Notes: generated from the sequence alone by a model not told the origin. Counted from the stretch's first letter, positions 45,222 to 60,809 are shown. The stretch is 64,000 bases of DNA from Candidatus Omnitrophota bacterium (GCA_043812955.1 JBDRLN010000076.1:4864-68863), one strand, 5' to 3'. Made by a program: numbers and translations.

Positions 45222-45506
45222 TTACCTTAATTTTGCATATTCGGCTAAGGTTGAATTCTTCTTGCTGACAAAAACAACCATAACCCAACAGGCAAATATA
45301 GCAGCCGTAATCGTTATGCCTAACATCAAGTCGCCGATAATATTTTTTGAAATAAAGAATATCTCGCCATTCCATAAGTGGTCAATAAGTCCGAATAATG
45401 AACCACCCAAAAACATCAAGCTAAGCCACCCTATCTTGATGTTTTTTGTCTTATGCCAAACTGCAGATGTAATTATAGCGCTTGCGGTTGGAAAAATATA
45501 ACACAT
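45222..45506 (-). CDS. Hypothetical small membrane protein
   Basis: 94 aa with 2-3 TM helices. Preferred over the overlapping + strand ORF (45184-45501), whose sequence is low-complexity. Confidence 0.3.
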   Translation of the reverse strand: MCYIFPTASAIITSAVWHKTKNIKIGWLSLMFLGGSLFGLIDHLWNGEIFFISKNIIGDLMLGITITAAIFACWVMVVFVSKKNSTLAEYAKLR

Positions 45507-45579
45507 CGTTGCACCCTCCTCTCGTCAAACCTTATGCATTACTAAATTAGCACGCCCCAAAATGCCTGTCAATAAAAAG

Positions 45580-46761
45580 CTAAATTCCTAAATCTGTCGG
45601 CGCCCTGCCGATAGAACGCAGCAACTGAATAATTGTCTCGATTCTTTTCTCAACATCCTCTTTTACTCCCGCACGATCAGGGTAAATATCATAAAACTGC
45701 TGGTATTTCCTGGGCGTTACATTAATCATTAAGGAATTCGCTCCGGCCATCAGCCCTAACCTTAAAGCATTTACTCTATCTAAGGTCTCAAATGAAGTAT
45801 TTACTAAGATCTGGGCTTTAGGATTTAAAATTCTCGCATTAGCAATTGTATTTAAGACTGTCTCAGTTGAAACCGTGGGAGTATTTGCCATAGGCGTATC
45901 CGGATGGGATATAAAAGGACCGAAAGAGAACATATCAGCCCCAAGGGTATTAGTCAATTCAATATTCTTTTTTACATCCTCTTCTTTTTCGCTAGGTAAG
46001 CCAATAAGAAAACCAGTCATGACTAAATACCCTATATTATGAAGTCTCCTGATCAACTCCAGCCTATCTTTAAGATCCCGGCCTGGCCTTAACTTAGCGT
46101 AAAATTGCGGATTGGCAGTTTCGAAACGTAAGAGTACGCCCCTGGCCCCTTCTTTATACAACCTTTCATATAGGCTGAAGTCTCTTTCGCCTAAGCTTAA
46201 TATGATCAAAGAAGGTGAATCTTGCCGGATCTTCTTTATCAGATAAACTAATTTCTCCTGGTCATACCAGGGATCTTCTCCGGACTGCAATACTAGGGCC
46301 TTAAACCTTAATTTATGCACGGCAAGGCTAGCCGTCTCTAATATCTCATCTAAGCCCATCCTGTATCGGGTGAGTTTTGAATTGCTTTGCCGGATCCCGC
46401 AATAAAAACAATCCATTTGGCAATAATTTGAGAATTCAATAATAGCGTGGGTGCAACAGGAATTTCCATGGTATTTCTGGCGCAGGTTATTGGCCCTCTG
46501 ATAAAGGGTCTTGGGGTCTTTTTGGATTAGCTGGCTATCGATCTCCTGAAGCTTAAAAAATAATTCCTTCCAGCTTTCTAATGCCGGCAAGGCTTCTCTT
46601 TCGCTTACTTTTTGAATAATAAAACCACCCTGGGCATAGGCATAATCGCCTATTTTTAAATCAAAGAATTCATTCCTGGCTTTTTTCTGCTCGCCGAAAT
46701 ATTCGACGCTAACTATATTCTCTTTTATACCGGTGATCTTGCCGGGGATAGCGTAGCACAT
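45580..46761 (-). CDS. Radical SAM maturase HydE homologue with N-terminal HypC-like domain (fusion)
   Basis: Residues 1-60 'MCYAIPGKITGI...IGDYAYAQGGFIIQKVSEREA' match the HypC/HupF pattern (MC-x-[AG]-[IV]-P ... GD[YW]V..H.GFA...EA). The remainder matches HydE: 'CQMDCFYCGIRQSNSKLTRYRM', 'LQSGEDP', 'LLRFETANP', 'GPFISHPDTPMAN' and 'YPDR'. Confidence 0.65.
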   Translation of the reverse strand: MCYAIPGKITGIKENIVSVEYFGEQKKARNEFFDLKIGDYAYAQGGFIIQKVSEREALPALESWKELFFKLQEIDSQLIQKDPKTLYQRANNLRQKYHGNSCCTHAIIEFSNYCQMDCFYCGIRQSNSKLTRYRMGLDEILETASLAVHKLRFKALVLQSGEDPWYDQEKLVYLIKKIRQDSPSLIILSLGERDFSLYERLYKEGARGVLLRFETANPQFYAKLRPGRDLKDRLELIRRLHNIGYLVMTGFLIGLPSEKEEDVKKNIELTNTLGADMFSFGPFISHPDTPMANTPTVSTETVLNTIANARILNPKAQILVNTSFETLDRVNALRLGLMAGANSLMINVTPRKYQQFYDIYPDRAGVKEDVEKRIETIIQLLRSIGRAPTDLGI

Positions 46762-46762
46762 A

Positions 46763-48259
46763 CTAAAAATAAAGGTCTCTTTTGCCCTGTTTTATTTCGT
46801 CTAAATAGGCCCGGGTTTTCTGGCGCAAGGAACTATCTTCTATTTTATCCAGATACGTCCTGATTACCTGATAACCTTTTTCATAAATTCCATAGGCACT
46901 TTGACTCGCTTTCGCTCGCTCAGTGTCAATGGTAGACTCATTTGAAGCATTGAAAAAATCTTCCAAATATTCGGCAAAGGTCAAAATCCCGTTAGACCGG
47001 CAGAAATTATGGATCTCTCCGGGTTTGGAAATCTCCATAAATTCCTCACCAGTCCTGCCTAAGCGGTAACAAGCAGTGCAGAAACTGGGCAAAAATCTAT
47101 CCTTGATCGCGTCATTAACCACTTCCTCTAAGGCGCGCTCATCCTGAACCTTAAACTGAGACAGGCCGGACTCTTTACCATATCCGCCTACCGTGGTACA
47201 GGAACCGGCTGAGGCCTGGGAGATGCCGATTTTAAAAGCCTGAGAACGTATTTCCGGGCTCTCGCGGGTAGAGATAATCATACCGGTATAAGGGACTGCC
47301 AGCCTTAAAATAGCAATTAGTTTTAGAAAATCATTATCGCTGACTTTATAAGGGAATTTTAAATTTACTGTCGCGGCTTCTCTGATCCGGGGAACCGATA
47401 TGGTATGAGGACCGATTTTGTATTTCTGGTCTAAATACCAGGCATGGGTAATAAGGGCCAATACTTCAAAACGCCAATCATAAAGCCCGAAAAGAACACC
47501 TATTCCTAGATCATCGATACCGGCTTCAAAAGCCCTTCCATAGGCAGTGATTTGGCGCAAATAATCGGCCTTAGGCCCATGGTGGATCTTTTCATAAGTA
47601 TTCCGGTGATAGGTCTCCTGAAACAATTGATAAGTCCCAATCTTGGCTTTTTTTAATTTGCGGTAGTTTTCAACTGTAGTGGCTGCGATATTGACATTTA
47701 TCCTGCGGATACTTCCCTTATCAGTTTTCACACTATAAATCTTATCTATAATCTTGGTAACATAATCAATATTATTATTTAAGGGGTCTTCGCCAAACTC
47801 CACCAGAACCCTTTTATGTCCCATACTAATCAAAATTTTAGTTTGTTCCTCTACATCAGCCAAACTCAGACGTTTACGCTTAAAAGCCATATTCCGGCTA
47901 TGAAAATTACAATAATCGCAATCATTGATGCAGAAATCCGAAACATACAACGGGGCGAAAAATACCAACCTCTCTCCGTAAACCTCGTTCTTTACCCAGC
48001 CCGCGGTATCTAATAATTCCTGAATTAGTTTTAAATCAGATAGATTAACCAAAAAGCCAGCATCTTCAGGACTAAGCCCCTTCATCTTTCTGGCTTCTTG
48101 AAGAATAACCCGGACAGCCTCTTTAGAAGGAGTTTTAGTCTCTTCTAGTATTTTATTTATATTTTTTTCGTTGATAATATTCTCTACCATTTTATTTTTT
48201 TGATTACAAAGGATAGGCATTTTATCCGCGGAATCTGTTTTTAAAATCTGTGTAATCAT
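46763..48259 (-). CDS. Radical SAM tyrosine lyase HydG homologue
   Basis: Radical SAM motif 'CINDCDYCNF' (HydG/ThiH type) plus the HydG-specific C-terminal CX2CX22C motif ('CTACYRLGRTGEEFMEISKPGEIHNFC'). Confidence 0.7.
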   Translation of the reverse strand: MITQILKTDSADKMPILCNQKNKMVENIINEKNINKILEETKTPSKEAVRVILQEARKMKGLSPEDAGFLVNLSDLKLIQELLDTAGWVKNEVYGERLVFFAPLYVSDFCINDCDYCNFHSRNMAFKRKRLSLADVEEQTKILISMGHKRVLVEFGEDPLNNNIDYVTKIIDKIYSVKTDKGSIRRINVNIAATTVENYRKLKKAKIGTYQLFQETYHRNTYEKIHHGPKADYLRQITAYGRAFEAGIDDLGIGVLFGLYDWRFEVLALITHAWYLDQKYKIGPHTISVPRIREAATVNLKFPYKVSDNDFLKLIAILRLAVPYTGMIISTRESPEIRSQAFKIGISQASAGSCTTVGGYGKESGLSQFKVQDERALEEVVNDAIKDRFLPSFCTACYRLGRTGEEFMEISKPGEIHNFCRSNGILTFAEYLEDFFNASNESTIDTERAKASQSAYGIYEKGYQVIRTYLDKIEDSSLRQKTRAYLDEIKQGKRDLYF

Positions 48260-48266
48260 TATTTAA

Positions 48267-48866
48267 TTAGGATTTATATACTGCTTCCCGACGGCAGCGG
48301 GGGCAAAGGACTTTGAGGCGGTCGGAGCGCGTAAATTCCTGTTTTTCGTCAATAGCTATTTCTTCTTTGCTGGCGGGATTTAAATTCTGGAGGTAAAATA
48401 ACAAAAGCGAGGCATTGGAAAAGCAAAGCGGGCCTAAACGTTTAGCCACCCACAATATCTGATCATACGGCGCGATTATCTCTTTGCAGCAATCGCAGAC
48501 AACCAATTCCTTTTCTATCTCCTGTTTTAAATCCTGCCTTTTTTCAGTAGTAGCCAGATCAAATTCATTAGACAACATTATTCCTTTGCCGGTCAGGCAA
48601 TTTGCCTGGCACTGGCCGCAGAATATGCATAAATCCCAATGCACAGTAAGTTTCCTCTTGCTTTCTACATCTTGCATTTCAATAGCCTTGGCCGGGCAAA
48701 CCTCAAAACAGGCCCCACAACCAACACAATCATCCTTGTGGAATTCCGACCTGCCCCTAAACCTGGGATAAGGCGTATGCCTCTGATAAGGGAACCGGTT
48801 AGTGTAAGGCCCCTTAATGATGGCTTTAATCGCCTCTTTTAATTCTCTTAATTTCGGATAACGCAT
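48267..48866 (-). CDS. 2x[4Fe-4S] ferredoxin, NuoI/MbhN-like, with extra C-terminal Cys pairs
   Basis: 'CVGCGACFEVCP' and 'CIFCGQCQANC', with additional 'CDCC' and 'CPRC' motifs. Confidence 0.6.
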   Translation of the reverse strand: MRYPKLRELKEAIKAIIKGPYTNRFPYQRHTPYPRFRGRSEFHKDDCVGCGACFEVCPAKAIEMQDVESKRKLTVHWDLCIFCGQCQANCLTGKGIMLSNEFDLATTEKRQDLKQEIEKELVVCDCCKEIIAPYDQILWVAKRLGPLCFSNASLLLFYLQNLNPASKEEIAIDEKQEFTRSDRLKVLCPRCRREAVYKS

Positions 48867-48937
48867 CTTGTTTTCCCTTATGAATAGCAGGTAGTAGATA
48901 GTAGGTAGAATGTAGGGTTTCCCCTAATTACTAGCTA

Positions 48938-49282
48938 CTACATACTATCTACTATTTTTTTATCTTCTTCGTACTTATCACAAACTGATTTTCCCCAGAG
49001 TTTTACTCCGGATTTATGGGCCGCCCGGGCTAAAACATGGGCAGAAACAGGGGCAGTCAATAATATAAATAAGATGCACAAAATTGCCTTTATGCCAGCG
49101 GCAGTAAATCCTTTAAATAGAAATAAACCAAATAATATCCCGCAGGTTCCCAGGGTAACGCTTTTTGTTGAAGCCTGCAGGCGATTATAAACATCCGGTA
49201 AACGGATTAGGCCCAGGCAGCCAAAAAAATCAAAGATAAGCCCGACAACTATAAAGAATATGCCGAATATCTCATTCATCAA
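48938..49282 (-). CDS. Mrp/Mnh antiporter subunit G-like
   Basis: 114 aa. Its N-terminus 'IFGIFFIVVGLIFDFFGCLGLIRLPDVYNRLQASTKSVTLG' matches the MnhG family. Confidence 0.6.
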   Translation of the reverse strand: MMNEIFGIFFIVVGLIFDFFGCLGLIRLPDVYNRLQASTKSVTLGTCGILFGLFLFKGFTAAGIKAILCILFILLTAPVSAHVLARAAHKSGVKLWGKSVCDKYEEDKKIVDSM

Positions 49283-49631
49283 AATTTCTCCCTTCCAGAT
49301 ACTTGGCTAAAGCCAAAGTAGAGATGAAACTTTGCAAGGCCCAGGCAATACCTATATCAATATACCAATCCCTGCCCGTGGAAATAGACAGTATCGCGCA
49401 AAAACCTAAAATTAATATCCCCAATATATCGACAGCCACGGCCCTGTCTGCCGAGGTCGGGCCTTTAATAATCCGCCAGAGGCAAAAAAATGAACAAAAG
49501 AAAAGCGTCATAAAACCATGCCTTAAAAAAGGAGATTGCCATTCCAGTAAAGAATAAAAGGGAATAAAAATAATCGCCCCGAGAATAATTATAATTGCTG
49601 TCAGGCCTAATAACCAACGTAACCTTTTCAT
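49272..49631 (-). CDS. Mrp/Mnh antiporter subunit F-like
   Basis: 119 aa with three TM helices and an 'SADRAVAVDILG' motif. Confidence 0.55.
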   Translation of the reverse strand: MKRLRWLLGLTAIIIILGAIIFIPFYSLLEWQSPFLRHGFMTLFFCSFFCLWRIIKGPTSADRAVAVDILGILILGFCAILSISTGRDWYIDIGIAWALQSFISTLALAKYLEGRNFDE

Positions 49632-50125
49632 TCAAAAATCCTTTTTAAGAGCCGCTCGAACCTGCGGACAATAATCTCTGCGGCTTTCTGGGTATCCTGA
49701 TCTTTAATATAAATCCAGTGGATATATAAAAACCCATTTTCTTGATCTATATCCACGCTCATAGTACCGGGGGTAAGGGTAATAGAGTTAGCCAAAAAAG
49801 TCAGGGCTGTATCTGACTTTAAAATAGTCTTAACCTTGATTATCCCTGGATTAATAAGTAAATCCGGGTGAGCGACCCGATAAGCCACATCAATATTCGC
49901 CTTAATACATTCCCAGATAAATAAGGGGATATAATAAAGAAACCAGAGATATCGGCTGATTTGTTTAAATTTGTGCGGCCTTCTTATAAACATATCGCCG
50001 GTTACAAAAGAAACCAGGGCGCAGACCAGAATCCCGACGATAAAATGCTGCAGGTCCACCGGCCAAGATAAAAAAGACCAGACTATAATCGCAATCATAA
50101 ATAAAATTATTTGGCTTTTTCTCAT
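49628..50125 (-). CDS. Mrp/Mnh antiporter subunit E-like
   Basis: 165 aa. Its position and two N-terminal TM helices are consistent with MnhE. Confidence 0.5.
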   Translation of the reverse strand: MRKSQIILFMIAIIVWSFLSWPVDLQHFIVGILVCALVSFVTGDMFIRRPHKFKQISRYLWFLYYIPLFIWECIKANIDVAYRVAHPDLLINPGIIKVKTILKSDTALTFLANSITLTPGTMSVDIDQENGFLYIHWIYIKDQDTQKAAEIIVRRFERLLKRIFE

Positions 50126-50136
50126 TGCAAATTAAC

Positions 50137-51624
50137 TTATCTTAAGGCGTTAAAAACAACGTCTTTATAACCATTGCCTAATAACAAAACGTCGGCCGCT
50201 GACTGCAAGAATGGTTTAAATAAAGGTATGATCAATAAACCGCCAACTAAGCAAATAATTGCTAAAGCTACCATAGATATTTGCATTGCCCAGGGCACCT
50301 CTTTTACACTAAGCCATTTTTCTTTTAACCTCCCTGAAAAAGCATATTTCTGCACCTTCATAAAAGAGGCTAAGGTAAGAATAGAGGCAGCTACCGCAAA
50401 TATGGCAAAAATAATTTTACCCGATTGGATACAGGCAAAAATTATCAAAAGCTTACTCCAAAAACCGTTAAAAGGCGGGATGCCGGCAATAGACATCGAG
50501 GCTACTAAATTTGTACTAGCAGTAACAGGCATCTTTTCTTTTAAACCGCCCATATCCTTCAGGTCTCTTGTGCCTAAGCTATAATCCAGCGCCCCCGAAT
50601 TTAAGAAAAGCAATGATTTAAATATAGAATGATTAAACAAATGGAATAACCCCGCCAGTATACCTAAGGGAGTACCTAAGCCAATACCTAAAATAACATA
50701 ACCGATCTGGCTTATGGAATGATACGCTAAAAGCCTTTTAAAATCCCATTGGACCAAGGCTAAGATTACTCCCATTAGCATTGAAATTATCCCTAAAAAC
50801 AACAGCACTGAAAGAATGCCGTTATTTATCCCGATAATATTAAAGAATATCCTTATTATGCAATAAACCCCCAGCACCTTTATCAATACCCCGGAAAGCA
50901 TTGCTGAAATAGATGCCGGCGCAGAAGGATGGGCATCCGGCAGCCAGGCGTGAAAAGGAACTAAAGCTGCCTTTAGGCCAAAGCCAGCTAAGAATAATAC
51001 CCCGACTAAACTAATCATTATACCTCCGGGCTTATTAGATAATACCAAAGCAATATCCGCCATATTTAAGGTAGAGGTATAACTATAAAGAAGGGCGATT
51101 CCTAATAACACAAAACTAGAGGCAACTGAGCCCATTATTGCGTATTTAAAAGAAGCCTCTAATTCCTCAGCCTCTGTGCCGAATGCCACTAAGGCATAGC
51201 TGGCGATAGAGGCAATTTCTAAAAAAACAAACAAATTAAATAAATCTCCGGTAATAATTATACCGTTCATCCCAGCCAGCATCAGCATAAATAAGGTATA
51301 AAACCGGTATTTATCCGTATATCTTTCCATATAATTAATGGAATAAATAGCCACCAGAAAACTAACTAAATTAACCGTAACTAACATAAAAGAGGCCAGG
51401 CCATCGAGGACCATGCTAATTCCTACGGGCGGCATCCAGCCTCCTATTTTATAGATAATAACCTTATGGGCCAGGACTTCTGAAATAGAATATACCGATA
51501 GGGCCAATAAACTAAATGTGCCTAAACTAGATAAGGAATCCCCAAGGCCTTTTATCCTCTTACCCAGGAGAGCGATAAGGAATGCTGCCAGCAAAGGAAT
51601 AACCGTAAAGAAAGGTAATATCAT
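50137..51624 (-). CDS. Antiporter-like subunit (MrpD/NuoN/MbhH family)
   Basis: 495-aa proton-pumping-subunit fold with about 14 TM helices and conserved 'FHLFNHSIFKSLLFL'. Confidence 0.75.
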   Translation of the reverse strand: MILPFFTVIPLLAAFLIALLGKRIKGLGDSLSSLGTFSLLALSVYSISEVLAHKVIIYKIGGWMPPVGISMVLDGLASFMLVTVNLVSFLVAIYSINYMERYTDKYRFYTLFMLMLAGMNGIIITGDLFNLFVFLEIASIASYALVAFGTEAEELEASFKYAIMGSVASSFVLLGIALLYSYTSTLNMADIALVLSNKPGGIMISLVGVLFLAGFGLKAALVPFHAWLPDAHPSAPASISAMLSGVLIKVLGVYCIIRIFFNIIGINNGILSVLLFLGIISMLMGVILALVQWDFKRLLAYHSISQIGYVILGIGLGTPLGILAGLFHLFNHSIFKSLLFLNSGALDYSLGTRDLKDMGGLKEKMPVTASTNLVASMSIAGIPPFNGFWSKLLIIFACIQSGKIIFAIFAVAASILTLASFMKVQKYAFSGRLKEKWLSVKEVPWAMQISMVALAIICLVGGLLIIPLFKPFLQSAADVLLLGNGYKDVVFNALR

Positions 51625-51959
51625 CCTTTTAATCTCCGGATTTTGGTAATATCAAAAGTGCCATACTTCTCATAAATTCTTATAGCAATAGCCACAATCA
51701 AGGCAGTAACCGCTAGGCCAATAACGATAGAGGTTAAAACTAAAGCCTGGGGCAAAGGATCAACCATATTTAAAATTATCTGATTCTTGGCTAATATGGG
51801 CGAGCGGCCATGCCAACGGTAGCCGATTAAGATTAAGAACAGGTTAACCGCGTATTCAATTATGCCTAAACCGATAACAATCTTAATAATATTCCTTTTT
51901 CTTAAAACACAGTAAAGCCCAATGGAAAATAAAATAAAACACAAGAAATATTCAATCAT
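51621..51959 (-). CDS. MrpC/NuoK-like subunit
   Basis: 112 aa with three TM helices. Confidence 0.55.
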   Translation of the reverse strand: MIEYFLCFILFSIGLYCVLRKRNIIKIVIGLGIIEYAVNLFLILIGYRWHGRSPILAKNQIILNMVDPLPQALVLTSIVIGLAVTALIVAIAIRIYEKYGTFDITKIRRLKG

Positions 51960-52408
51960 TACTTATCTCCCCGGCCTTTAAATAAAATCAAGGCCGCAAA
52001 TATGGCAAATAATCCTGCGCCTACCTTAAGGGATATAGCGATATTGCACAAAGGTATAATCCCGGCTGAGAATAAAGCAAAAGGACTCCCTTTATGCAAG
52101 AAAAAATTAAAAAATAAATATCCCCCTGAAAAACCAATCAAGGCAATAGCTAAAAACATTAAAGCGCCGATATTCTCTAAAACCGAAGCCCGGCCCTGGG
52201 ATAATTTTTTTAAAACCGCTTCCCGGCCAAAAGCAAGCATAAGGTGGATAAAAGAAAGGGCAATGATTACTCCGCCGGCAAATCCTCCGCCAGGGCTTAA
52301 GTGGCCATGCAGAACAATATAAATCCCGTAGAGCAGGATAAGCCCTACGGTAAGCCGGGTAACTGTCTTAACAATCACAGTCATTCCTGTTTCTTTTTTA
52401 TTTTTCAT
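51959..52408 (-). CDS. MrpB/MnhB-like subunit
   Basis: 'HGHLSPGGGFAGG' MnhB motif. Confidence 0.65.
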   Translation of the reverse strand: MKNKKETGMTVIVKTVTRLTVGLILLYGIYIVLHGHLSPGGGFAGGVIIALSFIHLMLAFGREAVLKKLSQGRASVLENIGALMFLAIALIGFSGGYLFFNFFLHKGSPFALFSAGIIPLCNIAISLKVGAGLFAIFAALILFKGRGDK

Positions 52409-52919: not shown

Positions 52920-52928
52920 ATAATAATC

Positions 52929-54584: not shown

Positions 54585-55198
54585 GATTTTATTTTGGCTA
54601 AATTCCTAGCGATATTTTTAGTATGATGATAAACCTCAGCCGTAAAATCCAGCATATTTATATACATATTGCAGGACATCGGGCTGCAGACTCCTTCGAT
54701 CACCCTCTCGGTATGCCTCCTACGATAATCATCAACTAAGTTATTCACACCCTTATGCCCCTGAGAAAGCTCTTTTAATACACCAACCTCATCTTTAGAA
54801 AAGGCATCGACTAATTTCTTTAATTCATTTTCGACTATATTATACAAAGCAATATATTCCTTTACTGCCTCATCGCTAAAAAGCAGCCTCTCTTCAATCT
54901 TAATCTGGACCCTCTCCAATATATCTTTGCAATAATCTCCGATAAGCTCTAGGTCTCCCGTCACGTCGGCATAGATAACAGCGCTTTGTTTAGTCTGGCC
55001 ATTCGTGGCCTTGACTAAATTAATCAACCCTGTATTAATCTCTTTTTCATAGTTATTTAGCCTGTCTTCATCTTTTAAAACCTCTGCCAGCAAATCCAGG
55101 TCATGCTCCATAAAAGTTTTAAAAGTTGTCTGCCACATCTTTAAAGTTAAAAAAGCCATTTTCACAACTTCACCTTTGATAGTCTCTAGGTCAGCCAT
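54581..55198 (-). CDS. PhoU-like domain protein inside the hydrogenase operon
   Basis: 'DVTGDLELIGDYCKDILERV' resembles the PhoU 'DxxxERIGD' repeat. 205 aa, no TM helix. Confidence 0.4.
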   Translation of the reverse strand: MADLETIKGEVVKMAFLTLKMWQTTFKTFMEHDLDLLAEVLKDEDRLNNYEKEINTGLINLVKATNGQTKQSAVIYADVTGDLELIGDYCKDILERVQIKIEERLLFSDEAVKEYIALYNIVENELKKLVDAFSKDEVGVLKELSQGHKGVNNLVDDYRRRHTERVIEGVCSPMSCNMYINMLDFTAEVYHHTKNIARNLAKIKS

Positions 55199-56381
55199 TC
55201 TCCAACCCCTTTTTTAATCTTTCAGTCTTATCCTGAGACAATTTAATTAAATCAAACCCATTTAAAATCTTCTTATCGCTTAATTTATCGATCACCGCGG
55301 TCCTTTCAGTACAACAATAACAGGGATCAACCGCAGCCAGGGTAATTGCCGCATCCGAGATAGTCCCGCCAACTGCGCCTACTTTATTGGAAGCTACATT
55401 CACATAGCTAGGGGCGCGGATCTTATGCCTTATTGGCCGGTTAGTCCCATCAGATTTAACATAATGGAAACATTCACCCCGAGGCGCCTCGATCCTGCCA
55501 ATACCTTCACCAGGCGGTATCTGCTTAGGATTAGCGTCAATCTCTCCCTTGGGCATCTTATCTAAACATTGACGGATAATACTTATGGACTCTCCTAATT
55601 CCAAAACTCTCACTACTGTTTTAGCAAAGATATCCCCTTCTTCCTGGACAATAACCTTCCAATCTAACCTAGCGTAAGCAGCATAAAGATCATCCCGGCG
55701 CAGATCAATATTTAATCCTGAAGCCCGGGCTGTAGGCCCAACTACGCACCAATCTATAGCCTGTTGTTTAGTTAAAATCCCTACTCCTTTAAGCCGGGAT
55801 TGAATAACCGGGTCATCCATAACCGCGCCCTTAAACATGCCCACTATCGGGACTAAATCATCCAGGGTCTTCTTTAATACCGGTACGTCTTCATCTAAAA
55901 TATCCCTTCTCACTCCGCCTATTTTCATCATCGCGTAGTGGTTACGGTTACCGGAAATCATTTCAAACATATCTAAGACCGGTTCGCGGTATCTCCAGGC
56001 CCACATCCAAACCGTATTATAACCTATAAAATGGCCGGCTAAACCCACCCATAAAAGATGGCTATGGATCCTTTCTAATTCAGCGATTATAGTCCGGATA
56101 TAAAGAGCTCTTTCCGGCACCTGGATATTAGCTAAATCCTCCATTGCCTGACAATAAGCCATAGGATGGCTATTAGAACAAATCCCGCAAATACGCTCTA
56201 CTAAAAAGGCAACCTGGTCAAAATGCTTAGACTCAGACAGCTTTTCGATTCCCCGGTGCATATAACCTATAACTATATCTATATCAACTACTTTTTCTCC
56301 CTCAACATAGAGCCGGAAATACTCAGGCTCTTCCTGTAAAGGATGGTAAGGACCGATAGGAACAACTATCTTGTGCGACAT
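55191..56381 (-). CDS. [NiFe] hydrogenase large subunit, group 4 (NuoD/MbhL/EchE-like)
   Basis: N-terminal 'RICGICSNSH' (RxCGxCxxxH) and C-terminal 'DPCYCCTER' (DPCxxCxxR) Ni-Fe ligand motifs, followed by about 37 aa. Confidence 0.85.
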   Translation of the reverse strand: MSHKIVVPIGPYHPLQEEPEYFRLYVEGEKVVDIDIVIGYMHRGIEKLSESKHFDQVAFLVERICGICSNSHPMAYCQAMEDLANIQVPERALYIRTIIAELERIHSHLLWVGLAGHFIGYNTVWMWAWRYREPVLDMFEMISGNRNHYAMMKIGGVRRDILDEDVPVLKKTLDDLVPIVGMFKGAVMDDPVIQSRLKGVGILTKQQAIDWCVVGPTARASGLNIDLRRDDLYAAYARLDWKVIVQEEGDIFAKTVVRVLELGESISIIRQCLDKMPKGEIDANPKQIPPGEGIGRIEAPRGECFHYVKSDGTNRPIRHKIRAPSYVNVASNKVGAVGGTISDAAITLAAVDPCYCCTERTAVIDKLSDKKILNGFDLIKLSQDKTERLKKGLENG

Positions 56382-56395
56382 CGAACTCCTTAATA

Positions 56396-56413: not shown

Positions 56414-56492
56414 ATTCAGTGAGATCCGCCGAAGCGCGCCAGGGCTTTTTTGTACCCTATTAAAGTGCGAAGGCGGATAAAACTCTTAGTTC

Positions 56493-56993
56493 TTAATCCT
56501 TGTGTTCATGTTCATGTTCATGTTCATGTTCATGTTCATGTTCATGTTCATCTTCATGTTCATCTTCATGTTCATGCCTCAAAGGAAATTCGCCCTGCGG
56601 CCATTCTTCAGCCAAAAGCAAACGCTTAAGATTAGGGTGGCCGATAAAATTAACGCCTAACAATTCCCAAATCTCTCTTTCTATCCATTCTGCTCCAATA
56701 ATTATAGGGGTAATTGAATCTACCGTAGGATTTTTCTTATCTTCCAAATTCACCCGTAAAGATATAACTTCACCAGAGGCATCAGCGCTAAAATGATAAA
56801 TTATCTCAAAGCCATCAGGGTTTTCCTGTCCTGAAGCGGTAATAAACCTTAAGCCTAGCTCCTTAAATAATAAGGTTACTGTTGTTTTTAAATCTTTCTG
56901 TTTAATAAAGATGTATACCCTTCTAAGCGAATGCTCATTCCAGTCAATTATGGCCCGGGATAATTTTTCCTTAATCTCTTCGCGAATAGACAT
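56493..56993 (-). CDS. NuoC/MbhK-like hydrogenase subunit with His-Glu-rich C-terminal tail
   Basis: NuoC fold ('IIGAEWIEREIWELLGVNFIGHP') and a tail 'HEHEDEHEDEHEHEHEHEHEHEHEHKD'. Confidence 0.75.
   Translation of the reverse strand: MSIREEIKEKLSRAIIDWNEHSLRRVYIFIKQKDLKTTVTLLFKELGLRFITASGQENPDGFEIIYHFSADASGEVISLRVNLEDKKNPTVDSITPIIIGAEWIEREIWELLGVNFIGHPNLKRLLLAEEWPQGEFPLRHEHEDEHEDEHEHEHEHEHEHEHEHKD
56504..56575. repeat. Hexanucleotide microsatellite (GTTCAT)8 + (CTTCAT/GTTCAT)4 encoding the His-Glu tail
   Basis: 12 in-frame hexamers read directly. Confidence 0.8.
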
Positions 56994-57418
56994 TATTTAT
57001 TACCTTTCACTTTTTCTATTAACTTAACAACGCCGGCAATAATCGCCTCAGGCTTTGGCGGGCAACCCGGTACATAGGCATCTACAGGGATTATTTCGTC
57101 TACCGGACAAGGACTATTGTAAGACTCTCTAAACATTATCCTTCCGCAAGCGCAGCTACCGATGGCAATTACTAAACAGGGCTTAGGCGCCTGTTCATAA
57201 AGCCTTTTCAATATCTCTTTAGTCTTATAATTTGGCACTCCGGTAACCAAAAGCACATCCGCATGCCTGACGCTTCCTACCAGGGTTATCCCAAACCTCT
57301 CCACATCATGACGAGGGGTTAAGACATCCAAAATTTCAATGTCACAGTTATTGCAAGGCGAAGCTGCGGCATGAAATACCCATAATGATTTAGTCAAGGC
57401 CTTAAGTTTAATATTCAT
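56993..57418 (-). CDS. [NiFe] hydrogenase small subunit, NuoB/MbhJ-like
   Basis: Proximal-cluster Cys ligands 'CNNCD', 'GSCAC' and 'PGCPP'. Confidence 0.8.
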   Translation of the reverse strand: MNIKLKALTKSLWVFHAAASPCNNCDIEILDVLTPRHDVERFGITLVGSVRHADVLLVTGVPNYKTKEILKRLYEQAPKPCLVIAIGSCACGRIMFRESYNSPCPVDEIIPVDAYVPGCPPKPEAIIAGVVKLIEKVKGNK

Positions 57419-57529
57419 ATCAAATCAGATTAAAGATTTAAGATTTCCCGCTCAGAATTTTTATGATCAAACGGGATCCCGCATTTGCTCCAATTCTGTT
57501 GCGGGAAAAGATAGCTCAAAGTTAAAAGT

Positions 57530-58474
57530 TTAAAGTCCAAATAGTGCTAGCGTTAAACCGAGTAACGCTGCTAATGTTAATTTTCCCCAGAAAAACCTGA
57601 CCGCCTGATCAATACGTACTCGGGGATTGGTATTTTTTATCAGGATTATTATAACCAATATAGCGATAAATTTCCCGATTAAAAACAAAGGGCTTAAATC
57701 TTTAGCCCAGAATAGCGTTATTAGAAATATAGGCAAAGTATAAAGTAATAGGGCCTTAGTTAGTTTAAAAACTGCCAAAGGAAGACCGGAATATTCAATC
57801 AAGGTTCCAGCCATTATCTCCTGCTCAGCCTCAGAGATGTCAAAAGGGGCCAGGCCTAACTTAGCCTGGATACAAAGTAAAGCCACTATAAAAGCTATTG
57901 CCCCGGAAAAAGAAATCATATTGGAACCAAAACTAACCTGATGGGCCAATATATTACCTAACTGAATACTCCCACCGGATTTTAGGATAACCGTAATTAC
58001 GGATAATATAAACGGCAGCTCATAAGCTAAAACTAATTTCATCTCCCGAGAGGCGCCTACCGAAGCTAGCGGGTTAGCTGATGCAGATGCTCCAATAATC
58101 ATGGCTATCGCCGGCATGGTCATAAGATATATAACTACGATTAAATCCCCTAAAAAACCCTGGCCAGAATAAATAATATTTAATCCTAAAATAGTACTTA
58201 CCAGGCCTAAGCTTAATAACCCTAAGCAAGGGGCCAAAAGAAATGTGGTTTTTGCGCCCTCAGGACAAATAATTTCTTTACCGGATAATTTTATAATATC
58301 CACAAAATTCTGGTACCAAGGCGGGCCTACCCTCCATTGCAAGCGAGCAGTTACCTTTCTATCCACCCAGCAAGCCAATAGCCCGATAACTGCACTGAAT
58401 AATAAACCCGGAAATATTAAATAATAGAGTAGAAATTTCATTTTTTCTTGGGTTGAATATCCTCTTTGGACCAT
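57530..58474 (-). CDS. NuoH/MbhM/HycD-like membrane subunit
   Basis: 314 aa with 8 TM helices and 'LAYELPFILS'-type NuoH loops. Confidence 0.7.
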   Translation of the reverse strand: MVQRGYSTQEKMKFLLYYLIFPGLLFSAVIGLLACWVDRKVTARLQWRVGPPWYQNFVDIIKLSGKEIICPEGAKTTFLLAPCLGLLSLGLVSTILGLNIIYSGQGFLGDLIVVIYLMTMPAIAMIIGASASANPLASVGASREMKLVLAYELPFILSVITVILKSGGSIQLGNILAHQVSFGSNMISFSGAIAFIVALLCIQAKLGLAPFDISEAEQEIMAGTLIEYSGLPLAVFKLTKALLLYTLPIFLITLFWAKDLSPLFLIGKFIAILVIIILIKNTNPRVRIDQAVRFFWGKLTLAALLGLTLALFGL

Positions 58475-58929
58475 TTTCTGGAACGCACTGCCAGGTTTTT
58501 ACCGATTAAATAAATATTCTGTTCAATGTCCTCTTCAATATCTTTAATTTCAACTGCTTTTTCGGGGCAATTGGCAACGCATAACGGTACAATATCTGCT
58601 TTACCTATACAAAAATCACAGCCTGAGTCCAAGTAAGGTATGAAATCCGTTAGAATCGTGCCAAAGGGACAGCCAATTACGCAAGATTTACAGCTGGTGC
58701 AGCGCATATTGTAACGTTTTAATATTCCATCAGGCTGTTTTTCCAGGGCATCATGATAACAGGAATTTAGACAAGGCGCTTCTTCGCACTGCCGGCAAAA
58801 TAAAATAAAAGTGGCGTATTCGCGTAAAGAGGTAATCCCGTTATTCTGCGGGTGGTATAAATAACTGCAGGCTACCCGGCAATCTTTACATTTATTGCAA
58901 ATATCCAAATCTATGTATAGTCTTTTCAT
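58438..58929 (-). CDS. Poly-[4Fe-4S] ferredoxin (HycB/MbhN-like electron-transfer subunit)
   Basis: Four Cys-cluster motifs: 'CNKCKDCRVAC', 'CRQCEEAPCLNSC', 'CTSCKSCVIGCP' and 'CDFC...CVANCP'. Confidence 0.65.
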   Translation of the reverse strand: MKRLYIDLDICNKCKDCRVACSYLYHPQNNGITSLREYATFILFCRQCEEAPCLNSCYHDALEKQPDGILKRYNMRCTSCKSCVIGCPFGTILTDFIPYLDSGCDFCIGKADIVPLCVANCPEKAVEIKDIEEDIEQNIYLIGKNLAVRSRKWSKEDIQPKKK

Positions 58930-58938
58930 AACAACCCT

Positions 58939-59754
58939 CTAGTCCCAGATGTCAGGTAAATCTTTTAACTGCTCATAAGTAAATACCGGACCGTCCTTGC
59001 ATATATAATATTTACCGATACGGCAATGCCCGCATTTACCCAGGCCGCAGGACATACTTTTCTCCATAGATAAATAAATATCCGGCGGCTTAAACCCTAA
59101 GTCGAGTAATTTTAAAGTGACGAATTTCATCATTATCGGCGGGCCGCAGACTATTACCGCGGCATTATTTAAATCTACAGGCAGGTCTTTTAATATAGTA
59201 GTGACCAGACCTACATTACCGTTCCAGGAAGGGTCTCCTACATCAACGGTAACCTTCAGATCTACTTTATTTTTCTTACCCCATTCAGGGATAAGATTTT
59301 TATAGATTATATCATTCGCGGTCCGCGAGCCGTAACGTAAAACCACTTTATTATATTTATCAATTGAGCCGAATAGCGCAAACAATAATGAACGCAAGGG
59401 GGCTAAACCTACGCCTCCACCAACTATCAATATATCTTTTCCCGTAAATTTATCCAAAGGATATCCTAAACCATATGGGCCGCGGATACCTACCGGAGTA
59501 TTTGGTTGAATATCATGCAATAAAGAAGTGATCTTACCGGCCTTCATTATGGTTACATCCATCTTATCTTTAATGTTAGGATCGGATGAAGGAGTAAATG
59601 GGGCCTCCCCAATTCCGGGCAGGGTCAATTCAATAAATTGCCCGGCCTTAAATTCAAATTTCTCTTTAGGCCTTAAGACAAGGGTCTTTATATTTAATGA
59701 CTCCACGATTATATCTTCTATAATTGCCTCTGCCGGCTTATAAATATTTTTCAT
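58939..59754 (-). CDS. FAD/NAD(P)-binding oxidoreductase with C-terminal [2Fe-2S] (sulfhydrogenase gamma / AsrB / PyrK-like)
   Basis: Ferredoxin-NADP reductase-like fold ('GGGVGLAPL') and 'CGLGKCGHCRIGKYYICKDGP'. Confidence 0.65.
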   Translation of the reverse strand: MKNIYKPAEAIIEDIIVESLNIKTLVLRPKEKFEFKAGQFIELTLPGIGEAPFTPSSDPNIKDKMDVTIMKAGKITSLLHDIQPNTPVGIRGPYGLGYPLDKFTGKDILIVGGGVGLAPLRSLLFALFGSIDKYNKVVLRYGSRTANDIIYKNLIPEWGKKNKVDLKVTVDVGDPSWNGNVGLVTTILKDLPVDLNNAAVIVCGPPIMMKFVTLKLLDLGFKPPDIYLSMEKSMSCGLGKCGHCRIGKYYICKDGPVFTYEQLKDLPDIWD

Positions 59755-60809
59755 TTATTCCTAGATAACCTATCTTTAAGATCTTTTAAAACCTCCCGGA
59801 TATCGATCTTTCCCGGGCAAACCTCGATACACCTACCGCAGCCGCAACAGGCCGGTATCCCTAAGTTATCAATAAAAAAGTCAAATTTTTTCATAAACCG
59901 GTTGCGCAGGCGCTGAGTCCTAGTTTTTAAAGGATTTGCCCCTCCGGCAACCCGGGTGAAATTAGCATATTGGCAGCAATCCCAGGCCTTTAACCGGATA
60001 TTTTCGTTTATCTTTTTATTATCTGATAATAGAAAACAATGACAGGTATCGCAGATAAGATTACAACCCCCGCATTCAACGCAGGTAAGCATAAATTTCT
60101 GCCAGGTATCTGCTGTGTAACCTTCTTTCATTAACTTCTGAACTTCGGATTTAGATATCAACCCCTGTGGAATGAGGTGTTTCTTTAACCTCTCAATCAA
60201 ACTATCCCTTTTGGCTTTGCGGGCCAGAACTTGAGTTTCTTTAGCCGGGGTAAAATATTCTTTATGCCGTTGGATAAGCGCACTTCCTTTGTCTGAACCA
60301 GACTCAACAATATAACCGTCGTTCAGAGGCGAAAGATTCAAATCAAAACCAATAGTCGGATGCGGAAGAACCTCCCAGGCCAGGCAATGGCAGACTTTTT
60401 TAAAATCCGTGCAATCACTTGAAATCACTATCGCCCGCTCCCTTTTAACTTTATATAACGAATCTTCTTCCAGGCCTTCTAAAAATACGTAATCCTGGAC
60501 CTTGTGCCCTTGGATATCGCAAGACTTTACCCCGAAAATGACTATCTTTTCGGGCTCTTTAAGATTTACATCTTCTTTGAAATAATCAGATACTTTTTCT
60601 ATGGGACTGGTAAAAAAAGCCTTGAGCGGCTCAATTGCCCTGTAAGCATTGAATTTCAAAGTTCCGGCTTTAGAAAATATATTATAGGTATAATCCGATT
60701 CTTTAACTTCGGGGTCTTTGACTACGGGAGAAAAAACCTTATAATCAGCGCTTAGACTACTAATAAAAGAAAAAAAATCAGTCTCCCGGATATAAAACAT
60801 CTTAGGCAT
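59751..60809 (-). CDS. Iron-sulfur subunit (sulfhydrogenase beta / AsrA-like)
   Basis: 'CVECGGCNLICDTCHC' and 'CCGCGRCIEVCP' motifs. Overlaps the gamma-like gene by 4 nt. Confidence 0.6.
   Translation of the reverse strand: MPKMFYIRETDFFSFISSLSADYKVFSPVVKDPEVKESDYTYNIFSKAGTLKFNAYRAIEPLKAFFTSPIEKVSDYFKEDVNLKEPEKIVIFGVKSCDIQGHKVQDYVFLEGLEEDSLYKVKRERAIVISSDCTDFKKVCHCLAWEVLPHPTIGFDLNLSPLNDGYIVESGSDKGSALIQRHKEYFTPAKETQVLARKAKRDSLIERLKKHLIPQGLISKSEVQKLMKEGYTADTWQKFMLTCVECGGCNLICDTCHCFLLSDNKKINENIRLKAWDCCQYANFTRVAGGANPLKTRTQRLRNRFMKKFDFFIDNLGIPACCGCGRCIEVCPGKIDIREVLKDLKDRLSRNK

Follow-up and report, generated by a model that had tools for sequence, protein, structure and literature searches.

A Hun-type (group 4g) [NiFe] hydrogenase locus with a predicted Rex operator and distal HydG and HypC~HydE genes in an uncultured Omnitrophota bacterium

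Hun is a 16-subunit, Mrp-linked [NiFe] hydrogenase of group 4g that is encoded by hunA-P, carries the signature motif pair CGIC/CYCC in its large subunit, and has been reported in Omnitrophica, Elusimicrobia, Atribacteria, Firmicutes MAGs and Kosmotoga (Glass et al., 2021, bioRxiv 10.1101/536078 / Environ Microbiol). The HydDB entry for group 4g reads "ferredoxin-coupled (putative)". An "enigmatic" group 4 hydrogenase of Saganbacteria RX5A, with Mrp-like subunits, cooF, asrA and asrB in one region, was stated to have its nearest relatives in Zixibacteria and Omnitrophica (Matheus Carnevali et al., 2019, PMC6349859).

Other known systems resemble Hun in part. P. furiosus MBH (group 4d, PDB 6CFW) shares the MbhD/E, MnhB and MrpC-G-like subunits, but has one antiporter-like subunit and receives electrons directly from ferredoxin without a beta/gamma/HycB input, whereas Hun has two antiporter-like subunits and an input module. 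In E. coli FHL-1 (group 4a, PDB 7Z0S), a soluble dehydrogenase delivers electrons to the polyferredoxin HycB and on to HycF, HycG and HycE; the input enzyme is the formate dehydrogenase FdhF rather than a flavoprotein pair, and there is no Mrp module. P. furiosus sulfhydrogenase I (group 3b, PDB 9NEZ/9NF0) and Salmonella AsrAB have full-length homologues of the Hun beta and gamma subunits that agree with them in their FAD, NAD(P), [2Fe-2S] and poly-FeS components. Their partners are cytoplasmic alpha/delta subunits or siroheme AsrC, in contrast to the membrane-bound group 4 enzyme of Hun.

We analysed a 64-kb stretch of Candidatus Omnitrophota DNA (64,000 nucleotides; the window). A 15.6-kb region on its minus strand (60809-45222) encodes 20 co-oriented open reading frames of at least 90 aa, rather than the approximately 21 genes of an earlier note made from the sequence. 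The head-to-tail run described there is real: at 15 of the 19 junctions the genes overlap or are separated by at most 11 nt, and the four wider gaps are NuoH-NuoB (111 nt), NuoC-large subunit (111 nt), MrpG-NuoI (71 nt) and HydE-small membrane protein (73 nt). Genes 1-17 are hunA-P plus a PhoU-like insert. Genes 18-20 encode no hydrogenase subunits but HydG, a HypC~HydE fusion and a small membrane protein, and count as accessory or maturation genes. The PhoU-like gene and the HydG and HypC~HydE genes, the most unusual features of the region, had been overlooked. The 5' limit is marked by a promoter-like site and a Rex box (60855-60948), and the 3' limit by a hairpin.

62180-62839, minus strand: rex, redox-sensing repressor gene (NF003995, 243 bits against a cut-off of 126)
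60920-60948, minus strand: promoter-like site in the ackA-hunA spacer, TTGACA-17 nt-TAATAT (a consensus match only, at 10/12 positions)
60855-60872, no strand assigned: predicted Rex operator TTGTGAAATTAATCACAA, a palindrome with one mismatch to TTGTGAA-N4-TTCACAA
45100-45208, minus strand: long nested, terminator-like hairpin past the last gene (-54.5 kcal/mol, z -7.3; 0 of 200 shuffles reach this energy)

On balance, we favor the reading that the region is a single Rex-controlled transcription unit for a Hun hydrogenase that takes electrons from NAD(P)H and is ion-coupled. The Rex site and the distal cofactor-building gene pair provide two new, testable ideas about how such hydrogenases are fed and assembled.

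The hun gene order recurs in all 80 species-representative loci wherever flank length suffices, so the arrangement is not due to chance. These loci include one from the study that named Hun (L057) and one published as group 4g (L079), and their large subunits are 64-84% identical to that of the window. Because of this synteny and identity, the hunA-P gene order and the CGIC/CYCC motifs, we identify genes 1-17 from their sequences as a Hun-type (HydDB group 4g) respiratory [NiFe] hydrogenase, a known and already named complex. The earlier note had assigned no established group 4 subtype, but one exists (Glass et al., 2021, bioRxiv 10.1101/536078). As in the published Hun, there are 16 subunits in the same order, AsrAB-like HunAB without AsrC, a group 4g HunG and an Mrp-type Na module. 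Unlike it, the window copy has a PhoU-like gene that separates hunG from hunH, a tail of His/Glu repeats on HunF and the three co-oriented distal genes. The RX5A region has in addition a molybdopterin oxidoreductase, for which the window has no counterpart; one related locus (L071) carries a similar insert.

Pfam and NCBIfam profiles matched the subunits that had been named from sequence, from beta, gamma and polyferredoxin through the NuoH/B/C/D/I-like proteins to the Mrp-type membrane arm. The hydrogenase module and the PhoU insert are encoded as follows.

57530-58474, minus strand: hunD, NuoH/MbhM-like membrane subunit (PF00146, 201 bits)
56993-57418, minus strand: hunE, NuoB-like small subunit with the proximal [4Fe-4S] cluster (PF01058; NuoB subfamily, 135 bits against a cut-off of 116)
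56493-56993, minus strand: hunF, NuoC-like subunit (PF00329)
55191-56381, minus strand: hunG, NuoD-type [NiFe] large subunit (L1 RICGICSNSH, residues 63-72; L2 DPCYCCTER, residues 352-360; 36-aa C-terminal extension)
54581-55198, minus strand: PhoU-domain gene between hunG and hunH (PF01895, 65 bits)
48267-48866, minus strand: hunP, NuoI/HycF/MbhN-like 2x[4Fe-4S] subunit with a Cys-containing C-terminal extension (matches 7z0s_F and 6cfw_N)

Among solved structures, HunG is most similar to P. furiosus MbhL (296 bits); the non-hydrogenase MBS reaches 184 bits. The Ni-Fe cysteines of HunG are intact in 77 of 78 orthologues, in which the C-terminal extension is 31-51 aa long, and a HycI protease gene lies downstream of hun in at least 20 of 44 loci. 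By these sequence features HunG is a real hydrogenase large subunit, which upholds the reading as an Mbh/Mrp-type group 4 enzyme with canonical Ni-Fe ligands rather than a non-hydrogenase protein of the Mbx/Ehr type. MBH also provides the closest solved relatives of an antiporter-like subunit (MbhH) and of HunP (MbhN), and HunC, HunP and HunG match HycB, HycF and HycE of FHL-1. The His/Glu-rich tail of HunF is encoded by a (CATGAA)12 repeat (56503-56576; period 6, 12.3 copies), and is long in only 4 of 76 orthologues. The PhoU-domain protein is outside the 16 published subunits; its gene is found in roughly half of the related loci, two of which (L071 and L082) have it at another position.

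The membrane arm that had been proposed, including two antiporter-like subunits, is present.

52929-54584, minus strand: hunH, first antiporter-like subunit, MbhH/MrpA type (best match 6cfw_H, E 8e-48, then MrpA 7qru_A)
52398-52919, minus strand: hunI, fused MbhD and MbhE (PF13244 and PF20501)
51959-52408, minus strand: hunJ, MnhB/MrpB-like subunit (PF04039)
51621-51959, minus strand: hunK, MrpC/NuoK-like subunit (PF00420)
50137-51624, minus strand: hunL, second antiporter-like subunit, MrpD type (PF00361, 240 bits, and PF00662)
49628-50125, minus strand: hunM, MrpE-like subunit (PF01899)
49272-49631, minus strand: hunN, MrpF-like subunit (PF04066)
48938-49282, minus strand: hunO, MrpG-like subunit (PF03334)

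The unit opens with three genes for a cytoplasmic input module.

59751-60809, minus strand: hunA, poly-FeS beta subunit of the AsrA/sulfhydrogenase beta family, 17 Cys (Fer4_22)
58939-59754, minus strand: hunB, gamma flavoprotein with FAD_binding_6, NAD_binding_1 and a C-terminal [2Fe-2S] domain (Pfam and sulfhydrogenase I gamma match)
58438-58929, minus strand: hunC, HycB/HydN-type polyferredoxin, four Cys4 motifs, 16 Cys (profiles; motifs read from the sequence)

HunA and HunB match the beta and gamma subunits of P. furiosus sulfhydrogenase I over their full lengths (9nez_B, E 9e-40; 9nez_C, E 1e-56), and HunC matches HycB of E. coli FHL (7z0s_B) and HycB3/4 of HDCR (7qv7). Thus, the operon does begin with true sulfhydrogenase beta and gamma homologues and a four-cluster ferredoxin, as had been suggested. 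The Cys motifs of HunA are kept in 62-63 of 63 orthologues, and the GxGxxP, CGPxxM and CX4CX2C motifs of HunB in 64 of 64. HunA scored 174 bits with the ShyB profile, 158 with HydB and 120 with AsrA, all below the equivalog cut-offs, and both beta and gamma fall short of those of ShyB, ShyC, AsrA and AsrB, which makes them paralogues rather than orthologues of the characterised proteins.

These matches, and the S0 reduction with which the literature credits sulfhydrogenase beta/gamma, could indicate a sulfur- or sulfite-reducing module, either a separate Asr-type sulfite reductase or a Hun in which H2 or NAD(P)H drives polysulfide reduction, in effect a membrane-bound "sulfhydrogenase". We regard this as very improbable. 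Profile searches identified no siroheme AsrC in the window or in any related locus examined, and no group 3b alpha or delta genes in the 64-kb window. The hunA, hunB and hunC junctions overlap at start and stop codons or are 9 nt apart, and translational coupling extends from these three genes to hunD. The sole promoter-like site that comes with a Rex box is 5' of beta, so a separately transcribed reductase, which the earlier note had considered, is not what is encoded here. The hun order is conserved in 64 of 64 loci. One locus (L042) has a separate, complete group 3b enzyme adjoining hun, whose beta and gamma subunits are 27% and 39% identical to the hun copies, implying that the latter are dedicated paralogues. 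The module is present in all loci with sufficient upstream flank. Given this conserved presence, the tight junctions and the absence of AsrC, alpha and delta, we conclude that it belongs to the Hun complex.

From the observed gene content, motifs, conserved synteny and operator conservation, we infer an electron path, a nucleotide substrate, a direction and ion coupling for Hun. The complex would comprise a complex-I-like hydrogenase (NuoH, B, C, D and I homologues with a true Ni-Fe site), an ion-translocation module of complete Mrp type (two antiporter-like subunits with MbhD/E, MnhB and MrpC, E, F and G) and the input module of gamma flavoprotein (FAD, NAD(P)(H) site, [2Fe-2S]), poly-FeS beta and HycB-type four-cluster ferredoxin. 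Gamma would exchange electrons with NAD(P)H and the Ni-Fe site with H+/H2, the path between them running from beta to HunC, the clusters of NuoI-like HunP and the proximal cluster of NuoB-like HunE. This wiring would parallel that of E. coli formate hydrogenlyase, in which HycB links FdhF to HycF. The membrane arm may couple the near-isoenergetic NAD(P)H/H2 reaction to H+/Na+ movement. Production of H2 from NAD(P)H is uphill at standard conditions (-320 versus -414 mV), so outward pumping with this donor would require either a low H2 level or a highly reduced NADPH pool. NAD(P)H-dependent H2 release would be assisted by the ion gradient; a gradient would be built up when H2 is low or when the enzyme runs in the direction of H2 uptake.

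The only published model, that of the authors who named Hun, is ferredoxin-dependent: HunABC would pass electrons from reduced ferredoxin to the Ni-Fe site, and H2 evolution would power H+ pumping and Na+/H+ exchange, as in P. furiosus MBH (Glass et al., 2021, bioRxiv 10.1101/536078). The HydDB label agrees with this model, the closest solved large subunit is MbhL, the polyferredoxin HunC and HunP could dock ferredoxin, and electron transfer from ferredoxin to H2 is exergonic enough for ion pumping. However, ferredoxin oxidation does not need a flavoprotein whose NAD(P)-binding fold is strictly conserved (64 of 64), the closest solved relative of gamma is the NADPH-binding gamma of sulfhydrogenase I, and the Rex operator and rex gene link expression to NADH/NAD+. 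Ferredoxin as the donor in place of NAD(P)H thus seems unlikely to us, but the models are compatible, as ferredoxin could be a second donor. To our knowledge, the characterised members of the gamma-type flavoprotein family (PyrK, NfnA, sulfhydrogenase I gamma and AsrB) use NAD(P)(H). The sequence fits NADH and NADPH equally.

The Rex box lies 46 nt 5' of the hunA ATG. In a scan of 64 related loci (1.29 Mb) that allowed up to 2 mismatches, 35 boxes were found, 27 of them within 72 nt upstream of hunA, one in each of 27 loci. The rex gene is two genes upstream of hunA, with ackA (60957-62183) between, and at least 10 other loci have a rex gene as the immediate upstream neighbour of hunA. A rise in NADH/NAD+ would cause Rex to de-repress the operon. 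In other bacteria Rex also governs ferredoxin-linked fermentation genes, and the operator is therefore no proof of the substrate. That the box was found in 27 of 64 loci, rather than in all, counts against the favored reading. The NAD(P)H:H+ oxidoreductase function advanced in the earlier note, which departs from the published ferredoxin model, gains indirect support from the gamma motifs and the operator.

The unit ends with three further genes.

46763-48259, minus strand: HydG radical-SAM tyrosine lyase (TIGR03955, 509 bits against a cut-off of 312)
45580-46761, minus strand: HypC~HydE fusion (PF01455, PF04055 and BATS)
45222-45506, minus strand: 94-aa hydrophobic membrane protein with a strong AGGAGG ribosome-binding site (ORF)

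The membrane protein had no family match in profile searches and is not conserved in the related loci. HydG starts 7 nt past hunP, if the longest ORF is taken, and its sequence includes CX3CX2C and a C-terminal CX2CX22C. In the fusion, residues 1-67 form a HypC domain that starts with MCYAIPGK, keeping the N-terminal Cys (T. kodakarensis HypC, E 3e-8), and residues 83-388 are a radical-SAM domain of HydE type (T. maritima HydE, E 3e-61) that scores 240.8 bits with TIGR03956, under the cut-off of 254.6. The fusion represents a conserved family in which 116 of 120 members start with MCY[AS]IPG[KR]; no description was found in the literature searched.

HydG and HypC~HydE may be ordinary [FeFe]-hydrogenase maturases that share a Rex regulon or a hydrogen-metabolism gene island with hun, with HydA and HydF elsewhere in the genome, and we give this an even chance. 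HydG matches at equivalog level, and the HydE domain aligns with T. maritima HydE over its full length. The pair is 4-10 kb from HydF, HydB and [FeFe] HydA in one locus (L003), HydF is near hun in another (L065), and only 5 of 44 hun loci have the pair. Against this, HydA and HydF were not found within the 64-kb window, and HydE of a canonical HydA-HydG-HydE-HydF set (L050) lacks a HypC domain. Three loci (L092, L093 and L095) have the fusion 3' of a [NiFe] operon without HydG. In the HydE/HydG/HydF system of H-cluster maturation and in [NiFe] maturation by HypC, HydE and HypC are not fused. In 10 of 13 independent contexts, across three hydrogenase classes, the neighbours of the fusion are [NiFe] hydrogenases or HypA/HycI, which are specific to [NiFe] enzymes, and in only one is it near HydF/HydA; in none of the 13 does it occur with HypDEF. 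These contexts hint at an undescribed radical-SAM step in [NiFe] maturation.

We identified 20 ORFs by ORF calling on the minus strand between 60809 and 45222. The gene run recognized in the earlier note is confirmed, but its count of about 21 genes is not. Adjacent genes overlap or lie at most 11 nt apart at 15 of the 19 junctions, and the remaining four gaps measure 71–111 nt.

Genes of the operon (minus strand, 60809-45222), numbered from the 5′ end, with functions assigned by Pfam and NCBIfam
Gene 1 (hunA): beta subunit, AsrA/ShyB-like poly-FeS protein, 352 aa
Gene 2 (hunB): gamma subunit, FAD/NAD/[2Fe-2S] protein, 271 aa
Gene 3 (hunC): HycB/HydN-type polyferredoxin with 16 Cys, 163 aa
Genes 4-6: NuoH, NuoB and NuoC homologues
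Gene 7 (hunG): NuoD-type [NiFe] large subunit, 396 aa
Gene 8, 54581-55198: PhoU-domain protein, between the large subunit and the first antiporter-like gene
Gene 9: first antiporter-like subunit, 551 aa
Genes 10-12: MbhD+MbhE, MnhB and MrpC
Gene 13: second antiporter-like subunit, 495 aa
Genes 14-16: MrpE, MrpF and MrpG
Gene 17 (hunP): NuoI-like 2x[4Fe-4S] protein
Gene 18, 46763-48259: HydG
Gene 19, 45580-46761: HypC~HydE fusion
Gene 20, 45222-45506: membrane protein, 94 aa

Upstream on the same strand are genes for HtpX, Rex and acetate kinase (ackA). The 147-nt spacer between ackA and the beta gene holds a promoter-like site (TTGACA-17-TAATAT) and a near-perfect Rex palindrome (TTGTGAAATTAATCACAA, 60855-60872). 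The palindrome lies some 50 nt downstream of the promoter-like site and 46 nt ahead of the beta ATG. Between the small membrane-protein gene and larE, RNA folding identified a nested hairpin (45100-45208, -54.5 kcal/mol, z -7.3) made of repeated GGGGACG / CGTCCCC units, which probably represents a terminator, or else a repeat element; a scan of the window for intrinsic terminators returned no more sites than in shuffled sequence. Neither a comparable hairpin nor a terminator-like site was found at the hunP-hydG junction, and no riboswitch or other Rfam family was found in the window. Given the promoter-like site and Rex box upstream, the hairpin at the 3′ end and the lack of a break between hunP and hydG, the simplest reading is that all 20 genes may form a single transcription unit.

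Directly downstream on the same strand are LarE and LarB (nickel-pincer cofactor synthesis) and a small cupin (43206-45078), followed by the full gene set for glycine cleavage (GcvT, H, PA and PB), a lipoate-protein ligase and LipA (37153-43163). LarA and LarC were not found within the window. One report describes lipoyl-H-protein as necessary for H-cluster assembly (PMC12752695), so the adjacency of these genes to hydG and hydE looked meaningful. However, it occurs in no related locus, and we rejected a functional tie of the glycine-cleavage and lipoylation genes to the pair as coincidence. The rest of the window (40 kb) holds housekeeping and exopolysaccharide genes, and none for Hyp proteins, HycI, HydF or HydA.

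Judged by gene content and order, the core of the operon is a Hun operon, a known but uncharacterized kind. Glass et al. (2021; bioRxiv 10.1101/536078) gave this name to a 16-subunit complex in which HunAB are AsrAB-like, AsrC is missing and HunC is a ferredoxin, and which they divided into Ni-Fe (HunEFGP), P (HunDHILK) and Mrp-like Na (HunIJKLMNO) modules. They reported it from Atribacteria, Omnitrophica, Elusimicrobia, Bacteroidetes, Firmicutes MAGs and Kosmotoga. The gene order in the window, from the AsrA-like gene to NuoI, is the published 16-gene order, with the PhoU-like gene after the large subunit as the sole addition. No window ORF scanned matched the siroheme domain (NIR_SIR) of AsrC. 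The large subunit carries RICGICSNSH (L1) and DPCYCCTER (L2), i.e., CGIC/CYCC rather than CxxC, the ligand pair described as unusual in HunG (Glass et al., 2021); DPCYCCTER is common to 77 of 78 orthologues. Thus, the Mbh/Mrp-type hydrogenase with a beta/gamma module recognized in the earlier note is borne out, but an established group-4 subtype, which it could not assign, does fit, because Hun had already been named and the window matches it gene for gene.

HunG was placed by HydDB in group 4g, yet is distant from other 4g sequences (Glass et al., 2021), and HydDB describes this group as 'loosely clustered, unknown function'. The window's large subunit probably also belongs to 4g, given this placement and its 66% identity to the orthologue in a published Ca. 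Tritonobacter MAG (L079), itself described as 4g. Related enzymes have been described without use of the Hun name: an 'enigmatic' group-4 enzyme with cooF, asrA and asrB in Saganbacteria, with relatives in Omnitrophica (PMC6349859), and 'Group 4g, Mrp-linked' hydrogenases in Omnitrophota and Ca. Tritonobacter (PMC8542988, PMC9324843). Novel to the copy in the window appear to be the PhoU insert, a microsatellite-encoded His/Glu tail, and the putative co-transcription of HydG and HypC~HydE.

The hunG product is, by its motifs and its gene neighborhood, a genuine, processed hydrogenase and not a relative of the Mbx/MBS/Ehr type. All four Ni-Fe Cys ligands are present in L1 and L2, and a 36-aa C-terminal extension follows; the ligand motifs are kept in 77 of 78 orthologous large subunits, all of which have an extension of 31-51 aa. 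In at least 20 of 44 loci, a HycI-type protease gene lies 3′ of hun. Against solved proteins, the subunit scores higher with MbhL (296 bits) and HycE (266) than with MBS (184). The Ni-Fe ligand motifs named in the earlier note are present, and the non-hydrogenase relationship that would have undone its reading was not found. Three known classes were considered and rejected. MBH-type group 4d enzymes have 14 subunits, of which one is antiporter-like, and take electrons directly from ferredoxin, whereas two antiporter-like subunits and a beta/gamma/HycB module are encoded here. No alpha or delta genes of a group 3b sulfhydrogenase occur in the window. For the sulfite reductase AsrABC, the scores for AsrA (120 bits vs a cut-off of 323) and AsrB (221 vs 289) are too low and AsrC is absent.

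Full-length alignments connect the beta and gamma subunits to those of P. furiosus sulfhydrogenase I, whose structure is solved (9NEZ; E 9e-40 and 1e-56), as expected from the earlier note's comparison with sulfhydrogenase or AsrA/AsrB. The gamma GxGxxP and CGPxxM motifs and [2Fe-2S] Cys are kept in 64 of 64 orthologues, and the beta cluster motifs in 62-63 of 63. HunC is HycB-like, with similarity to the formate hydrogenlyase (FHL) and HDCR proteins, and HunP resembles HycF/MbhN, so the architecture of Hun is FHL-like. Unlike FHL, Hun has an NAD(P)(H) flavoprotein pair in place of formate dehydrogenase, and a full Mrp set in the membrane part. It is unlikely that beta and gamma form a separate sulfite or sulfur reductase, despite their similarity to AsrA and AsrB: AsrC is missing, the two genes appear to be translationally coupled to the operon, and in one related locus (L042) hun adjoins genes for a complete 3b enzyme that has a separate beta/gamma. 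That 3b operon (L042:410-4958; beta, gamma, delta, alpha and protease) lies directly upstream of hun, and its beta and gamma are only 27% and 39% identical to those of hun.

In 27 of 64 loci, a Rex box with at most two mismatches lies no more than 72 nt upstream of hunA, and only 35 such boxes exist in all 1.29 Mb of loci. The rex gene is the immediate upstream neighbor of hun in at least 10 loci. A rex gene and, in the promoter region, a predicted operator (TTGTGAA-N4-TTCACAA) give the window both features expected of a Rex regulon member. The position of the box suggests that transcription starts in front of beta and that expression is linked to NADH/NAD+. On the basis of the beta/gamma homology, the conserved gamma motifs, the FHL-like architecture and the Rex boxes, we lean toward Hun as an ion-coupled NAD(P)H:H+/H2 oxidoreductase under Rex control, in preference to a ferredoxin-dependent enzyme. 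The ion-translocating NAD(P)H:H+ oxidoreductase proposed in the earlier note thus gains a conserved NAD(P) site and the Rex boxes in its favor, with ferredoxin as a rival donor. In the published model Hun depends on ferredoxin (bioRxiv 10.1101/536078), which we consider rather improbable; the conserved Rex operator and NAD(P) site challenge a ferredoxin-only version, and ferredoxin may be a second donor beside NAD(P)H.

If NAD(P)H is the donor, the energetics matter: transfer of electrons from NAD(P)H to H2 is slightly uphill at 1 bar H2 (-320 vs -414 mV). The membrane arm would then spend the ion gradient to drive H2 release; alternatively, energy could be conserved when H2 is low or is being taken up. 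Group 4g is, to our knowledge, the only large class of energy-converting hydrogenases without an assigned function. Conservation of the Rex operator and of the NAD(P) site speaks for a Hun branch that joins the pyridine-nucleotide pool, beyond ferredoxin, to H2 and an ion gradient. If so, fermenters and syntrophs could dispose of NADH as H2 without bifurcation, and metabolic models of Omnitrophota, Atribacteria, Elusimicrobia and others would change; all such models that we know of presently assume ferredoxin. Surveys such as PMC9324843, which recognize 'sulfhydrogenase' from gamma (ShyC) homologues at 35% identity, may catch hunB as well.

Scanning a single genome from each GTDB species yielded 80 loci, with large subunits 64-84% identical to that of the window, for which a gene matrix was made by tblastn and ORFs. 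They derive from Omnitrophota, Elusimicrobiota/Endomicrobia, 'Clostridia' MAGs, Nitrospirota, Chitinispirillaceae and Auribacterota, and include a locus (L057) from the ODP 1244 study that named Hun. The same synteny (beta-gamma-Fd-NuoH-B-C-D-(PhoU)-antiporter-MbhDE-MnhB-MrpC-MrpD-E-F-G-NuoI) is kept in every locus with enough flank. Short variants in five loci (L036, L039, L041, L046, L049) consist of beta-gamma-Fd-NuoHBCD-PhoU, one antiporter-like gene and NuoI, and are without MbhD/E through MrpG. They retain the beta/gamma input module but not the full Mrp module, so the former is the more constant of the two. In two loci (L071, L073) hunB and hunC are separated by extra genes, among them a 668-aa ORF of L071; this insertion probably corresponds to the molybdopterin protein of Glass et al. 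and Matheus Carnevali et al.

The PhoU-domain gene, which is outside the published 16-subunit complex, occurs in about half of the related loci (at other positions in L071 and L082), and we can only guess at a regulatory or metal-binding role. In the window, a (CATGAA)12.3 microsatellite on the coding strand (56503-56576) gives the NuoC-like subunit an HEHEHE... tail. Such a His-rich tail is present in only 4 of 76 orthologues and may bind nickel and vary in length; most of the orthologues finish with a short HEHE(S/P).

The window HydG is confidently identified (TIGR03955, 509 bits vs an equivalog-level cut-off of 312) and has the CX3CX2C motif (CINDCDYC) and a C-terminal CX2CX22C auxiliary-cluster motif (CTACYRLGRTGEEFMEISKPGEIHNFC). 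The next gene encodes a fusion. Residues 1-67 match HypC (PF01455, 46 bits vs a cut-off of 28.5; 2z1c_A; TIGR00074 at 41.4 is under its cut-off of 48), and residues 83-388 match T. maritima HydE over its full length (E 3e-61; TIGR03956 at 240.8 bits is just under its cut-off of 254.6). HypC/HupF is an OB-fold domain of about 75 aa that starts with Met-Cys, the Cys2 being essential. The fusion family is large, with 2206 matches at E <=1e-10; among the best 120 of these (57-100% identical), all have the HypC domain and 116 have the N-terminus MCY[AS]IPG[KR]. The position that we take to be equivalent to E. coli HypC His51 appears to be Gln (YAQGG). No description of a HydE/HypC fusion was found in the literature searched.

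A metagenome scan with the fusion returned 8 loci. Thirteen independent contexts, sampled from the fusion's side as loci rather than whole genomes, place it beside [NiFe] genes in ten cases.

Contexts of HypC~HydE beside [NiFe] genes
Window: hun, then HydG and the fusion
L092: hun-HycI-fusion, no HydG
L093: hun-fusion, no HydG
L094: HdrA/MvhD-type [NiFe]-HycI-HypA-ThiF-HydG-fusion
L095: HypA-3b-HycI-fusion
L096: HypA-3b-HycI-ThiF-HydG-fusion-Rex
L085, L087: 3b-protease-HypA-fusion-HydG (in L087, then a CbiM/NikM-like protein)
L084, L088: HypA adjoins the HydG/fusion pair

The fusion thus follows group 3b, Mvh/Hox-type and Hun enzymes and adjoins HycI and HypA. A ThiF/MoeB-family gene recurs between HycI/HypA and HydG (L017:18033-18812, L094:7647-8558, L096:7834-8586). 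The two genes occur in either order: G then E, with at least 58% identity to the window protein, or E then G, with 45-50%. Only a minority of hun loci (5 of 44) show the association. Where HypF/C/D/E genes lie upstream of hun (eight loci), HypC stands free and both HydE and HydG are missing. HypD/E/F genes were found within 10 kb in none of 22 fusion-bearing loci and may sit elsewhere in the genomes.

In the other three contexts the fusion lies near [FeFe] genes (L003) or elsewhere (L001, L097). Because the pair is 4-10 kb from HydF, HydB and HydA in L003, an [FeFe] maturase role seemed apt at first, and wider sampling of contexts changed this picture. Whether they are nevertheless ordinary [FeFe] maturases is a question on which we are evenly divided: HydF and HydA, not seen in the window or in 12 of the 13 contexts, may lie elsewhere in these genomes, but ten contexts are beside [NiFe] genes and one is near [FeFe] genes. 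In a canonical HydA-HydG-HydE-HydF cluster (L050), HydE is without a HypC domain. Under a relaxed H-cluster motif, neither the 97 loci nor the window yielded a complete [FeFe] catalytic domain. An apparent 'HydA' in L086/L087 is actually an NAD(P)H-linked formate dehydrogenase (NuoE, NuoF/GltD fusion, FdhA).

Tentatively, we suggest that HydG and HypC~HydE, with the recurrent ThiF-like gene, might constitute a radical-SAM route for building or delivering the Fe-carbonyl/cyanide unit of [NiFe] enzymes in Omnitrophota and some Elusimicrobiota. In this scheme CO and/or CN- would come from tyrosine through HydG, the unit would ride on the N-terminal Cys of the fused HypC domain, and the route would substitute, partly or wholly, for the HypD/E/F machinery. 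A role of the pair in [NiFe] maturation in this strong form, with HydG as the supplier of the diatomic ligands, is doubtful; HydG yields 2 CO and 1 CN and the Ni-Fe site holds 1 CO and 2 CN, a stoichiometric mismatch. If true, this route would point to a source of the CO ligand in anaerobic [NiFe] maturation, an old question in the field. HydG and HypC-fused HydE recur in the hypC position behind three [NiFe] classes, by HypA/HycI, and are thus a concrete candidate. This analysis adds to earlier descriptions the conserved Rex operator and NAD(P) site, and the recurrence of HypC-fused HydE with HydG inside [NiFe] maturation clusters. Elsewhere in the window (18131-21071), two neighboring B12-binding radical-SAM genes lie within a polysaccharide-synthesis cluster (glycosyltransferases, Wzy, Wzz-PilZ).
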